Below are positions 21,401 through 27,400 of a DNA stretch of 64,000 nt, in pieces; within the stretch, counting starts at the first letter, position 1, and the number at the start of each line of letters is the position of its first letter. Position numbers: made by a program. The stretch is from the NCBI RefSeq assembly GCF_045037415.1, contig NZ_CP173438.1; one strand, given 5' to 3'. Source of the DNA: Escherichia coli. Lineage in GTDB: Bacteria > Pseudomonadota > Gammaproteobacteria > Enterobacterales > Enterobacteriaceae.

Positions 21401-24400
21401 TGTAAGAAGCTGGTCGCATCGGGTATTCATTGCCTGATGCGACGCTTTCGCGTCTTATCATGCCTACATAGCTCATGCAATATATTGAATTTGCATGCTT
21501 TTGTAGGTCGGATAAAGCGTTCACGCCGCATCCGGCAATGTGCACCATGCGTTGGATGCGGCGCGAGCGCCTTATCCTACCTACGGATGGCACTGGTTTC
21601 CTCATTCACCCAGATCCGCATTTCGCCTTCACCCCGGTTGGCCCAGCTAAACCACGGGATAAACGTCAGAATTTGCGGCTGGCGTTTGGCTGGCGCGCTG
21701 TCGTAATGCCACAGCGGTTGCTGCTCTGGATTGCTCTGTTCATACCGGTAACCCGGTGCCTGGATTAAGATCTTATGGCGGAACAATCCATTACCTTCAA
21801 ATGTCGTAAATGGCGCATCGGCGGGCAGCCACAGATTATGCAGTGACTCGCCGTTGTCGACCTGTTCCAGACAATACACCAGCGGGCCGCGCTGAATCGC
21901 CACTTTTCCGGCGACGTGACGCACCAGCGGGTTACCGTAAACGCGACGTACCGGCATTGGCAAAGTCAGATTCAGCGTGTCGCCCTCCTGCCATTCACGG
22001 GTAATGTGCAAATACCCTTTACGAATATCCTGCTCGACCTCTTCCCCATTCAATATGATCTGCGGCTGTATGCACCAGTCCGGTAGACGTAAAGCCAGCG
22101 TATGACGCACCGGCTGGGGTGATTCAACCGCAATCGTCACCTGTTCCTGCCACGGATAGTTTCCGCTAACCCGCAGGCGCAGCGTGCCATTTTCTACCGG
22201 CACCTCCATGCTGTTTCCTGCGTAGATGTTGATATACAACGCATCTTCACGCGGCGTGTAGAGATAATGACCAATCGAGGTTAGCACGCGGGCGATATTT
22301 GGCGGACAACAAGCGCAGCCAAACCAACGCTGGCGGATCGGCTTAACGTGATCGTAGATATGGTTGAATTTCAGCGATTTTGGATGTACTTCCAGCGGAT
22401 TCACATAGAAGAAATGTTTGCCATCCAGCGCCATGCCGCCGAGCACGGTGTTGTACAGTGCGCGCTCCATCACATCGGCATATTGACTGTCGCCTTCCAT
22501 TTCCAGCATTCGTCGGGCAAACATCATCAGGCCGATGGAGGCGCAACTTTCAGCGTATACCGTGTCATTCGGCAGATCGTAATCGCTGCTGAACGCTTCA
22601 CCGCTGCTCTGTGAGCCAATGCCGCCGGTAATATATAACTGACGCTGGGCCATATTGTTCCACAGCCGCAGGCAGTCCTGACGCTTGCTTTCATCGTGAC
22701 TTAAACGCGCGAGATGCGCGACGCCGGTCATCAGGTAGACAAAACGTACCGCGTGACCAATGGCGGTTTGCTGCTGTGCGATGGGCAAATGTGCCTGGCT
22801 GTAGGCTTTGTCTTTCACCATCCACGCCGGGCCGTAGGTGTGCCAGTGCGAGGTCTGCCCGCGCTTTTCATATTCCTGGTCGTAATAGTGCGGTTGCGCA
22901 CCACGCTGTTCGACAAAATAGTTCGTCAGCGCCAGGTAGCGCGGCTCTTCGGTCACTTCATACAGGCGCATTAGTGCCAGTTCAATTTCCGGGTGACCAG
23001 GATAACCATGTAACTTACTTTCATCTGGACCAAATACGCTGTCGATATGATCGGTCAGACGGCAAACCACTTCCAGCAAGCGCCGCTTGCCCGTAGCCTG
23101 GAAGAAGGCGACTCCGGCTTCAATCAGATGACCGGCGCAGTAAAGTTCATGACACTCCGCCAGATTGCTCCAGCGTTCTTCGGGCGCTTTTACCGTAAAG
23201 TAAGTATTGAGATAGCCATCTTCGCACTGGGCGGAAGCGATCAGTTCAATCACCTCGTCGGCGGTTTTTTCCAGTTCGGCGTCCGGCTTCTGGCACAGCG
23301 ACCAGGCTACCGCTTCCAGCCATTTGGCGACGTCGCTGTCCTGAAACACCATCCCGTAAAATTCACCCTCCTGAAGTCCGGCGGCAATGCGAAAGTTTTC
23401 AATCGCATGGCTGGGTTCCGCTTCTGGGATACGATCGTTCAAGGCATCCCACTGATAAGGAATCACCACGTCGCGGACCAGTTGTTGGTACTGACCGAGG
23501 AACGGATCGCTGACCGTCAGTTTATGCAGATCGACTTCCGAAATGTTCATCTTGTGCTCCTTAAGGCTGTACATGACGCTGACGCAGGTCGCTAGCAATG
23601 CGTGACATCATAGGGTTATTGAGTTTGCAAAAGCGGATCGCCATCGCCAGCAGCAGGTGGAACAGCGCAGGCAGCAATGTTTCCATCGCCGCGATCCCGC
23701 CAAGCGAACTGGCGGTCTGGTTTTCCACGCCTGGCTGGTAGGCGACAAAAATAAACAGCAGGCTGATGATCCCGGCGCTGGAGGCCCAGGCCAGCTTGAT
23801 GAAAAACAGATTGAAGGCGAAGTTCATGCCGGAAGAACGTACGCGGGTTTTCCACTCGCCGTAGTCATCGGCAAAGGCCATCAATGAGAAGTGCAGTGGC
23901 AATGTGAAGCCAAGAATCACGCCATTACCGAGGATCACCACCAGCCACAGCGTTTGATAAGCCGGGCTGGAGGGCAGGAACCACATCAACACCGCCAGTG
24001 CAGCGAGGAGCAGGTTGGTGTAGTAGTAAATTTTGACGGTATCGAAACGCCGCGTTAATGGGCTGACAATCACCGAGCCGATAATGGAGGCGAAGGTGAC
24101 CATGGTGAAGAACAGCGACGTGTAGCCCGTACTGCCTTGTAAGACGTAGGTAATGAAGTACATATACCCACCGCCGCGAATATTAAAGACGTTAATCAGC
24201 AGGAAAGACATGACCAGCATCAGCAGCAGTTGGTCGTTGTTCCGCAGCCCGGCAAGATGTTCGCGCAGGGTAAATTTCCCCATTGTGGAGAGTGGCACCC
24301 GTTCACGAACCCAGAAGAAACAGCACAGGAACATCACCACGGCAATGGCGCACAATACGCCGACGCCAAGTTGATAGCCGCGTGCAGCGTTGCCCTGACC

Positions 24401-27400
24401 GAAGAGATCTACCATCCACGGTAAGCCTACCGAAACCAGAAATCCCGCTACGCCGCAGAGAACGAATCGCCAGGACTGGCAGGAGATCACTTCATTGTGG
24501 CGGGTGGTCATGGTGTTGATCAGCGCGCAGTACGGTACGTTGATGGCTGTATAACCGACTGAAAGGAGCAGGTAAGTACCGAACGCCCAGGCGATTTTTA
24601 CTCCCATGCTGGCATCTGGCACGGTGAATGTCAGGATGCCGATAATGCCGATGGGAATGGCAATCCATAACTGCCACGGACGAAAGCGCCCCCAGCGACT
24701 TTGCGTCCGGTCGGCAATGACGCCCATCACCGGGTCGGAGATGGCATCAAACACGCGTAGCGCAATAAACAGCGTGCCAACCAGCGCCGGAGTTAAGCCA
24801 AAAACGTCGGTGTAGAAAAAGGTGAGAAAGTTCATGATCAGGCAAGTTATTACGGTGCCGCCTGCGTCACCCAGGCCGTAGCCTATTTTTTCCCGTACAG
24901 ATAACGCATCGTCAATTTTACCTTTAGCGATATCAGCGGTGGTAATCGGTGTAGAGGTCATAGATATTCCTCGTGAATAGGGAGCAATTTTTAGTTTTAT
25001 TGCAATGACCTGATTAATTCTGCCGTGAACGGGAATATCAACAAGGCGAGAAAAGAGTAAAAAAAGGTGACGATTCCGACCTGAATTTAAAAGTGTGAAA
25101 TGGATCAGGTGAAATTAATGTTTTTGATTAATAATCAAAAGGTAATGTGTTTAATCATTAATGAATAAGCGGGAAATTACATATCAATGCTCGAATTATC
25201 CATGACGTTACCGATTAAAGTGCAAAATGGTGGATTATTTATTTCCCGTGGCGTAGGGAGGCATCCTGCAAGGCGGCTGGAGTCATGGGAAATTATCTTC
25301 GTCGAAAAAGGTCGATTAACGATTCAGGAAGATGAACGGATATTTCTGGTCGATGCGGGAGAGAGTTTATTACTCTGGCCGAACCGACAGCATGTTGGGG
25401 TGGAGGATTTTCCCGCCGATCTCAAATTTTACTGGCTGCATTTTGAGGTTAAAGCGCCGGACAACGATCCGCGCTGGCTCACTCATCTTAGCGTGCCGCA
25501 ACAAACTAAGGTTGCCGATCCGCAGGTGCTGGTGGCCTTGTTTCGCCAGTTCTTAAGCGAACAGGAAAAGCATCAACGCACTCCGGCGCTGGAGTTTATT
25601 GTGCTGCTGATTTTGCAGCAGCTCACCCGTGACGCGCGTCTTGATGAACAGGCCGATGGTGCAGGCACCACCCTTGCCTGGAAAGCGCAGAAACTGATTC
25701 GCACGCAATATCACCGCCCGCTTTCCACGGCGCTTTTAGCCCGCGAGCTGTACTGCAATGCCGATTATCTTGGGCGCGTCTATCGGCGGGTGTTTCATCT
25801 GACGTTAACAGAAGCAATCCACCGCCAGCGGGTGCGCGAAGCCGAAAAGCTGTTAATTAGCGAAGCGCGATCGCTCACGGAAGTGGCGGCGTTGTGCGGG
25901 TTTAATGACGTCGGCTATTTCCGGCAGATTTTTCGCAAACACACCGGCTTAACGCCAGCAGCGTGGAAGCGGCGTTACAGCAAGGAACATATCAATTCGT
26001 AGTGCCGGGGCGATGAAGCCCCGGCGTGAGGGATTACTGCCCGTAATAGGCATTGGCCCCATGCTTACGCAGGTAGTGCTTATCCAGCAGTTCGTTTTGC
26101 ATCGCAGGGAGCTGTGGCGCAAGCTGGCGCGAGAACAGACCCATATAGGCGCACTCTTCCAGTACCACGGCGTTATGCACCGCATCGGCGGCATTTTTTC
26201 CCCAGGCGAACGGGCCGTGAGAATGCACCAGTACCGCCGGGATTTGTGCCGGGTTCAACCCACGCTCTTCGAAGGTTTTAATGATCACTTCGCCGGTCTG
26301 GTATTCATACTCACCGTTGATCTCTTCTGCGGTCATCAGGCGCGTGCAGGGGATGGCTCCGTAAAAATAATCGGCGTGAGTAGTGCCCCAGGCGGGGAGA
26401 TCAAGTCCGGCCTGCGACCAGATGGTGGCGTGGCGCGAGTGGGTATGCACTATGCCGCCAATCTCCGCAAAGCGACGGTAAAGCGCCAGATGCGTTGGCG
26501 TGTCGGAAGAGGGCTTTTTGCTGCCTTCCACCACCTTGCCGCTGGCTATCTCAACCACCACCATATCGTCGGCGGTCATTACCTCATACTCAACGCCGGA
26601 AGGCTTAATCACCATCCATTGCCGCGTTTCGTCTATCGCGCTGACATTGCCCCAGGTGAACGTCACCAGATGATGAACGGGAAGCGCCAGGTTTGCCGCC
26701 AGCACGTCAGCTTTCAGTTGCTCTAACATATAAATCCGGCCTCCTGCATACGCGCTTCAATCCAGCGCCGCGCCTGAATAATCTCCAGCACCGGCTCTTT
26801 GGCTTTTTCGGTCCACATCTCAATCAGGAAAGAACCGCGATAGTTCAGCTCATGCAGCGTTTTGAAGATGCCAACAAAATCGACACAGCCTTCGCCAAAC
26901 GGCACATCGCGGAACTGTCCGGGGCTATGTTCGGTAACGGGTTGAGTGTCTTTCAGGTGGATGGCGGCGATACGGTCGATGCCCAGTTTCAGTTCGGCGG
27001 GAACATCATTGCCCCAGGCGCTGAGATTGCCGACGTCCGGGTAAACGGTGAACCACGGTGACGCAAGCATTTCGTCCCACTTTTTCCATTTGCTGATAGA
27101 GTTCATAAACGCGGTGTCCATAATCTCCACCGCCAGCATGACTTGTGATGCCGCTGCCTGTTCAACCGCCCACGCCAGCCCTTCAGCAAACCGTTGCTGG
27201 GTGCCTTCGTCATGATCTTCGTAATAGACGTCGTAACCTGCCAGTTGAATAGTACGAATGCCGAGATCGCGTGCCAGGCGAATCGCTTTACTCATAATCT
27301 CCCGCGCCCGCTGGCGCACGGCGTCGTCCCGGCTACCAAAAGGAAAACGACGATGTGCGGACAGGCACATTGACGGAATAGCAACACCCGTTTCGAGCAT

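Follow-up and report, generated by a model that had tools for sequence, protein, structure and literature searches.

What does the sugar-utilisation locus that lies between aldB and sgbE in some Escherichia coli strains do, and how did it come to stand there? The stretch of E. coli DNA analysed here (64,000 nucleotides of RefSeq assembly GCF_045037415.1, contig NZ_CP173438.1; hereafter the window) carries, between the end of aldB at position 21400 and the start of sgbE at 26034, three intact genes according to open reading frame (ORF) calls: a glycoside-pentoside-hexuronide (GPH) symporter, an enzyme of glycoside hydrolase family 127 (GH127) and a regulator of the AraC family. We consider it reasonably likely that these genes form an intact, functional catabolic module for the import and cleavage of small plant-derived beta-L-arabinofuranosides, and that this module is ancestral to the Enterobacteriaceae. 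The substrate would probably be beta-L-arabinofuranosyl oligosaccharides. The genes and the junction that joins two of them are the following.

21577-23550, minus strand: GH127 cysteine glycosidase (657 aa from ATG), predicted to be a cytoplasmic beta-L-arabinofuranosidase
23561-24961, minus strand: GPH:cation symporter (466 aa)
23551-23563, minus strand: GPH stop codon with AAGGAG ribosome-binding site and 10-bp spacer, sequence ...CCTTAAGGAGCACAAGATG
25187-26002, plus strand: AraC-family transcriptional regulator (271 aa), divergent from GPH-GH127

The stop codon of the symporter gene and the ATG of the GH127 gene are separated by exactly 10 bp, and an AAGGAG Shine-Dalgarno sequence overlaps that stop codon, which together argue for a single operon. 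The GH127 frame runs from the ATG at 23550 to a stop codon at 21577-21579, while a TTG-extended version reaches 23598. The original prediction, made from the DNA sequence of the window, had described a compact, self-contained sugar locus in the interval between aldB and sgbE, with two minus-strand genes 10 bp apart and a divergent AraC-type regulator. All its ORFs were found where it had placed them, and profile searches confirm the three-gene GPH/GH127/AraC unit. The GC content of the module (0.52-0.57) is similar to that of its flanks, and the whole 4.8-kb interval is 100% identical in many complete chromosomes of human E. coli isolates, for example SK1144 and 81009. We believe that these chromosomes and the lineage of the window belong to the pandemic sequence type 131 (ST131). 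RefSeq labels the genes “glycoside hydrolase family 127 protein”, “MFS transporter” and “AraC family transcriptional regulator”, so the locus is already recognised at the level of annotation.

The enzyme had been called GH127-like from a CCPPN cysteine cluster, and a profile search against this family (DUF1680) bears the assignment out: the 657-residue protein matches all three family domains in Pfam, namely PF07944 (E = 5.7e-112, residues 12-427), PF20736 (2.5e-23) and PF20737 (3.3e-25). These profiles recognise a catalytic (alpha/alpha)6 domain together with a middle and a C-terminal beta-sandwich domain. Among solved structures the best match is 4QJY from Geobacillus stearothermophilus (E = 5.1e-234, 782 bits; query residues 11-650 against residues 16-647 of the chain). 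HypBA1 from Bifidobacterium longum (3WKW) is matched over its full length, with a moderate similarity (E = 6.6e-152, 511 bits), and 6EX6 and 5MQO score lower (386 and 324 bits).

Does the protein also retain the catalytic machinery? In HypBA1, Cys417 is the nucleophile, Glu322 the acid/base residue, and three cysteines and a glutamate form the zinc site (PMC8106489). E318, E334, C336, C414 and C415 of the E. coli protein align with HypBA1 E322, E338, C340, C417 and C418. Both the nucleophilic cysteine (C414) and the acid/base glutamate (E318) are conserved, and the zinc ligands E334, C336, C414 and C415 are kept within the motifs AESCAS and CACCPPN, the latter at residues 412-418; part of the exact numbering of the zinc ligands in HypBA1 is our assumption. 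H134, H186 and H266 furthermore align with HypBA1 H142, H194 and H270, which we take to line the -1 subsite and thus the sugar pocket. From these motifs the protein is classified as a retaining, zinc-dependent cysteine glycosidase, and, by analogy with its characterised relatives, it most likely acts on terminal beta-L-arabinofuranosides (EC 3.2.1.185). Neither a hydrophobic segment nor a signal peptide was seen in its sequence, and the enzyme should therefore be cytoplasmic.

The proposed GPH symporter is recognised by TIGR00792, the GPH model, above its cut-off (333.7 versus 231.35 bits) and by PF13347 (MFS_2; 1.9e-73, residues 27-448), and it is a polytopic protein with about 11 hydrophobic segments. 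Its top subfamily matches in NCBIfam are the YagG model and PRK11462, and it stays below every equivalog cut-off: 358 against 610 bits for YagG, 327 against 836 for PRK11462, 211 against 456 for MelB and 194 against 528 for UidB. These scores place it in the glycoside-pentoside-hexuronide:cation family (TC 2.A.2) and set it apart as a distinct subfamily therein. The co-transcription of a GPH symporter with a cytoplasmic glycosidase is familiar from yicJ-yicI, yagG-yagH and melAB of K-12, the last of which is controlled by the AraC-family activator MelR. The glycosidases of these K-12 pairs are GH31, GH43 or GH36 enzymes. The module differs from them in that its partner enzyme is a GH127 cysteine glycosidase and its transporter falls under all the equivalog thresholds.

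The divergent regulator shows the two-part build of its family. Its C-terminal double helix-turn-helix matches PF12833 (HTH_18; 4e-19, residues 184-263) and PF00165 (5e-8), and its N-terminal half contains a cupin-type sensor domain (PF02311, AraC_binding; 6e-9, residues 26-132). AraC proper (NF007860) is its best NCBIfam match, with 60.9 bits against a cut-off of 208, so that the protein is not AraC itself; the MelR model is also among the matches. In almost every locus that holds the GPH-GH127 pair, the regulator gene adjoins it in divergent orientation. The region between the two transcription units contains several conserved elements.

24962-25186, no strand: divergent control region, 225 bp, AT-rich
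25017-25022, minus strand: -10-like CAGAAT hexamer for the GPH-GH127 operon, with TTGTTG 16 nt upstream
25039-25082, minus strand: 44-bp conserved block AgGTCGGAATcgTCanCTTTTTaTACT...CTTGTTG, running into the -35-like TTGTTG
25090-25109, no strand: conserved CRP-like site cctGATCcattTCACActtt, a footprint in 69 species
25124-25138, no strand: conserved palindrome TTGATTATTAATCAA near the regulator gene, with ttgAtTaTt.A conserved

A scan of the 225-bp interval for consensus sigma-70 promoters found none, which fits a dependence on an activator. We infer the promoter elements from conservation in an intergenic alignment of 69 species. Within it GCAnAAT (25017-25023) is conserved, and TTGTTG, 16 nt and CAGAAT may thus make up a weak GPH-GH127 promoter with a transcription start near 25010. 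The 44-bp block that abuts its -35 element is a candidate binding site for the AraC-type activator. Its motif occurs once in the window and not at all in 100 shuffles; a search of the window for another copy of the conserved 25-bp operator-like motif found none. Further upstream, GATCnnnnTCACAnTTT (25090-25106) is at least 90% conserved in the 69 species and fits the right half and the centre of the CRP consensus, and by comparison with that consensus, TGTGAnnnnnnTCACA, positions 25090-25109 are assigned as a putative CRP site. On the side of the regulator gene, the neighbouring conserved element is TTGATTATTAA (25128-25138), and the palindrome around it is possibly the -10 region (TAATAAT, plus strand, 25129-25135) of the regulator promoter. 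Past the putative -10 the sequence varies in its length as well as in its content, which is what a leader would show.

Counted from the predicted start, the activator would occupy roughly -37 to -73, and the centre of the CRP site would fall near -91, a layout like that of araBAD. Relative to a divergent regulator promoter that uses TAATAAT, this CRP site would be near -41. The likeness to araC-araBAD thus comprises a divergent AraC-family gene, a CRP-like site about 90 bp upstream of the presumed start, a block of about 40 bp that reaches to the -35 element and a weak core promoter. It ends at the operator and the protein: no obvious direct-repeat half-sites were seen in the candidate region, and the regulator is not AraC (61 versus 208 bits).

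How could these parts work together? The closest precedent is the system of B. longum, in which an extracellular enzyme releases beta-arabinobiose (beta-Ara2), a transporter imports it and the intracellular HypBA1 splits it (PMC8106489). By analogy, the GPH cation symporter would import a small beta-L-arabinofuranoside, the likeliest being a beta-1,2-linked L-arabinofuranosyl di- or oligosaccharide that other microbes have freed from plant hydroxyproline-rich glycoproteins or pectic arabinan. The cytoplasmic GH127 enzyme, whose family and active site are evident, would cleave off the terminal beta-L-arabinofuranose, and the freed L-arabinose would enter the araBAD pathway. The AraC-family protein may sense the sugar through its cupin domain and activate the weak operon promoter from the conserved site of about 44 bp next to the -35 element, presumably helped by CRP from the conserved site about 90 bp upstream of the start, as at araBAD.

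The resemblance to HypBA1 (BLLJ_0211) covers the family, the three-domain layout, the cysteine nucleophile, the acid/base glutamate and the (Cys)3-Glu zinc site, and it would extend to the import of a small beta-arabino-oligosaccharide followed by hydrolysis in the cytoplasm. The two systems differ in that B. longum uses an ATP-binding cassette (ABC) transporter with a beta-Ara2-binding protein where E. coli would use a single GPH symporter, and in that the E. coli module has AraC-type regulation and neither an adjacent GH121 enzyme nor another releasing enzyme. The closest solved structure belongs to Ara127N, the araN product of G. stearothermophilus T6 (4QJY/4QK0), which is matched end to end with identical active-site motifs. 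Its gene is, as we assume, the last one of a large L-arabinan cluster with ABC transport, and not part of a three-gene GPH/AraC module.

Several points weigh against a beta-L-arabinofuranoside module. The genes next to it encode no extracellular enzyme for the release of the substrate, which would therefore have to come from other microbes or from plant tissue. The searched literature yielded no biochemical, genetic or growth study of the enzyme from E. coli or another enterobacterium. GH127 is known to hold other specificities, and the only NCBIfam match of the protein is the model for aceric acid hydrolases of the BT1003 type (NF049879), where it scores 453.8 bits (cut-off 950) and is matched over residues 252-649 only. 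Ara127N, the best structural match, was presumably itself named by homology. The ligand and activator role of the regulator are proposed from conservation, as are the promoter elements and the CRP site. Finally, the NCBI Prokaryotic Genome Annotation Pipeline (PGAP) marks the identical GH127 gene in SK1144 as a “frameshifted” pseudogene.

Could the same architecture serve a different glycoside? The module might handle another furanoside or a rare sugar, whose product could feed the L-pentose pathway of lyxK-sgbH-sgbU-sgbE and not araBAD. We give this a limited chance. The polyspecificity of GH127, seen in the partial match to the aceric acid hydrolase model and in the 3,6-anhydro-D-galactosidases that act on carrageenan (PMC5698469), would allow it, as would the position of the regulator gene directly beside sgbE, seen in E. 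coli and about 28 of the species loci, and the searched literature offered no assay of an enterobacterial GH127 enzyme to contradict it. By its scores, however, the protein stands much nearer to the beta-L-arabinofuranosidase clade (782 and 511 bits) than to 6EX6 and 5MQO, its three histidines coincide with those presumed to line the pocket of HypBA1, and the module persists where the yiaK-sgbE operon is missing, for example in O157 and in Citrobacter portucalensis. A role in the use of beta-L-arabinofuranosides is therefore preferred.

The “frameshifted” mark raises a second question: is the locus still alive in the lineage of the window? The very end of the GH127 gene and the repetitive extragenic palindromic (REP) elements beside it are as follows.

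21580-21597, minus strand: altered last six codons of the GH127 gene, TSAIRR versus KHCHP
21432-21584, no strand: three REP-like palindromic units at the aldB-GH127 junction, the third of which contains the GH127 stop codon

Protein alignment shows a tail of ...WVNEE-TSAIRR in the window (657 aa) where the E. coli strains M9 and O157 have ...WVNEE-KHCHP (656 aa). At the DNA level the change amounts to a 1-bp deletion plus substitutions, which explains the mark that PGAP puts on identical genes, and residues up to E651 are unaffected. The alignment with the 648-aa Geobacillus structure stops at query residue 650, so that the altered tail lies beyond the end of the homologue and touches no structural element.

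A frameshifted GH127 pseudogene, and with it a dead operon in a decaying locus, would agree with the annotation flag and with a region that is prone to deletions in E. coli, but we regard it as very improbable: the frame is open over 657 codons and departs from other E. coli alleles only after E651, past the end of the homologous Geobacillus protein, the transporter and regulator genes are intact, the ratio of nonsynonymous to synonymous divergence (dN/dS) within E. coli is 0.07, and more than 1000 contigs carry the identical 657-aa sequence. We consider the 657-aa gene functional. The pseudogene mark, seen at 6282-8251 of stretch L001, has a practical side, as pangenome or genome-wide association studies that use RefSeq proteins may score GH127 as absent in the lineage of the window.

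How did the module come to stand directly beside aldB? The original prediction had noted that yiaT, yiaU, yiaV and yiaW of K-12 are unrecognisable at the locus, and this holds: the window contains no true yiaT or yiaU, and its only yiaV- and yiaW-like matches are paralogues at 11477-12978 (plus strand, 74-77% protein identity) upstream of selA/selB, a possible source of confusion with the absent yiaW and yiaV. We take these paralogues to be yibI/yibH. The further idea that the module occupies the place where K-12 has yiaT-yiaW does not stand, since comparison of the aldB-sgbE interval shows the two as neighbours that coexist in M9, O157:H7, Citrobacter, Enterobacter and others. In the mouse strain M9 and in O157:H7 the order is aldB-yiaW-yiaV-yiaU-yiaT-GH127-GPH-AraC, with both modules side by side.

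Among 5426 complete E. coli genomes, with presence defined as at least 80% of the query covered, the module is found in 2311 (43%). Junction-specific searches find yiaT beside an intact GH127 gene in 1255 of the 5426, the arrangement of the window, with aldB directly beside GH127, in 566, and a K-12-type scar in 2460 (45%). In K-12 MG1655 the next feature after yiaT is a 190-bp internal fragment of the GH127 gene, which corresponds to window positions 21688-21877 with 88% identity; it is fused directly to the last 104 bp or so of the AraC-family gene (window 25899 onward), after which sgbE follows. We take the GH127 and AraC fragments to be ysaD and ysaC, presumably with the names in this order, and yiaS to be sgbE. 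The ysaC and ysaD pseudogenes lie between yiaS and yiaT (PMC12361893).

The K-12 lineage has hence deleted GH127-GPH-AraC and kept two pseudogene fragments. In the window the loss went the other way. The middle REP unit (21503-21537) matches by BLAST the REP element downstream of aldB in K-12 and continues, in the alignments, into sequence found downstream of GH127 in M9 and O157. This joining of an aldB-side REP to GH127-side sequence suggests that the lineage of the window lost about 3.9 kb with yiaW-yiaT, apparently through REP-REP recombination, which is the simplest reading. The history is then one of two opposite losses from an arrangement with the module between yiaT and sgbE: the lineage of the window dropped yiaW-yiaT, and K-12-type strains the module itself, with ysaD and ysaC as remains.

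Is this order indeed the older one? A scan with one genome for each species yielded 280 relatives, and the neighbourhoods of the best 80 were compared. The GH127 proteins of these 80 share 72-96% identity with the protein of the window and come from Escherichia, Citrobacter, Klebsiella, Raoultella, Enterobacter, Lelliottia, Leclercia, Kluyvera, Kosakonia, Salmonella enterica subsp. diarizonae, Phytobacter, Pantoea, Buttiauxella and Mangrovibacter, among others. In about 70 of the 80 species the order AraC(-)/GPH(+)/GH127(+) is kept, and the three genes stay together while the flanks vary. In many of these 70 or so species the module has the same neighbours and stands between sgbE and yiaT-yiaU-(yiaV-yiaW)-aldB, and the full ancestral-type order aldB-yiaW-V-U-T-GH127-GPH-AraC-sgbE occurs in many E. 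coli and other Enterobacteriaceae. The flanks in other genera look like either unrelated genes or ordinary syntenic ones when their translations are read (selAB, malS/avtA, efflux, ABC transporters, a siderophore receptor); no extra carbohydrate genes beside the module were recognised there from ORF sizes and translated sequences, without a profile search.

The sequences themselves tell the same story. For the three genes dN/dS amounts to 0.05-0.10 within E. coli and 0.03-0.15 between genera, with 0.03-0.08 for the GH127 gene, and the module is under strong purifying selection. Between genera its synonymous divergence (dS of 1-3) is like that of the flanking sgbE and aldB. Together with the synteny and the flank-like GC content this shows that the module is ancestral at the site between yiaT and sgbE and vertically inherited, and that it became accessory in E. 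coli through repeated loss. The label “accessory” given to it earlier is thus right for E. coli, with the module in 43% of complete genomes, and wrong if it is meant to describe an acquired island. That a horizontally acquired island replaced yiaT-yiaW has next to no credibility and is rejected: the lack of the module in K-12 and in more than half of the complete E. coli genomes, the 72% identity of its GH127 enzyme to Bradyrhizobium proteins and a best structural match from Geobacillus (4QJY) would suit such an origin, but 1255 E. coli genomes have yiaT-W together with the module, many genera show the two in the same order, synteny holds in about 70 species, K-12 keeps remnants, GC content (0.52-0.57) and synonymous divergence are like those of neighbouring core genes, and no mobility genes flank the module.

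What would a beta-L-arabinofuranoside module mean for the biology of E. coli? If the proposed function holds, beta-L-arabinofuranosides, a class of plant glycans outside the textbook sugar repertoire of E. coli, would be usable by some 43% of its genomes and by most other Enterobacteriaceae; of the operon itself K-12 has only the ysaC/ysaD scars. This overturns no existing knowledge, as the family, its mechanism and the logic of the operon are all known; the module adds a further, uncharacterised member to a known family of enzymes, follows a familiar operon plan and already has its gene names from automated annotation. The interest lies mainly in the loss from K-12, in the age and wide spread of the module among Enterobacteriaceae and in its presumed substrate in the gut. 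In the searched literature enterobacterial GH127 appears only in CAZy-count tables (PMC4561680) and in one association study with its commentary. In the latter, a pangenome study of isolates from inflammatory bowel disease (IBD), the accessory genes reported to co-segregate with epithelial invasion include one for a GH127 protein, which the authors interpret through HypBA1 (PMC11879602; commentary PMC11954838).

A more speculative extension, which we think unlikely though somewhat less so than a switch to another glycoside, is that the module serves cross-feeding. It might let Enterobacteriaceae, the presumed ST131 lineage of the window among them, scavenge beta-arabinobiose or beta-arabino-oligosaccharides that bifidobacteria and Bacteroides free from the extensins and pectin of the diet. 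The K-12-type lineages (45% of complete genomes) would then differ from the others in a real niche trait, overlooked because the laboratory strain is among those that lost the module, and the co-segregation with invasion in IBD isolates (PMC11879602) might reflect this adaptation to the gut.

Beyond these arrangements the interval between aldB and sgbE varies in further ways. In other strains a hicA-hicB toxin-antitoxin pair stands at the aldB-GH127 junction instead of yiaW-yiaT (E. coli M00057; stretch L085, 3370-3982), and in one listed strain of this type a type I restriction gene also falls under the match. A few E. coli strains have aldB directly beside sgbE, with everything in between deleted. 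In O157:H7 strain 4276 (L004, 10508-10648) yiaT-W and the GH127 module are kept and the whole yiaK-sgbE operon is gone, so that the AraC-family gene adjoins an IclR-family remnant, which we take to be yiaJ, followed by ysaA. A second polymorphism of presence and absence lies close by: a Fic-family gene of 431 aa (18459-19754, plus strand) between yiaY and aldB is found in the window, SK1144 and O157:H7, while K-12 and M9 lack it and have about 165 bp between yiaY and aldB. The aldB-sgbE interval, a hot spot of deletions, offers convenient lineage markers in the presence or absence of yiaT-W, hicAB, the module and yiaK-S.

The transporter and the enzyme also travel as a pair elsewhere. One Enterobacteriaceae genome holds, besides the canonical module (L032), a paralogous GPH-GH127 pair of 70% identity with a LacI-type regulator (L084, 5219-9956), located between ubiX/argT/hisJ and purF. 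That the pair recurs with a different regulator shows the transporter and the enzyme to be the functional core that is conserved. Outside the family, GH127 proteins of Bradyrhizobium (L076-L081) are 72% identical to the E. coli enzyme, which is unusually close for alpha- and gamma-proteobacteria, and their genes have no GPH or AraC partner. At one of these loci (L080, 5701-7797) the GH127 gene adjoins an ORF of 698 aa with a match to the model for oligopeptidase B, an S9-type peptidase. This neighbourhood could reflect the use of hydroxyproline glycopeptides or horizontal transfer.

Within the window, long antisense ORFs overlap the sgbE (237 aa; 26013-26726, plus strand), GH127 and aldB genes. 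They are without annotation support and look like by-products of the composition of the coding strand, not like genes.

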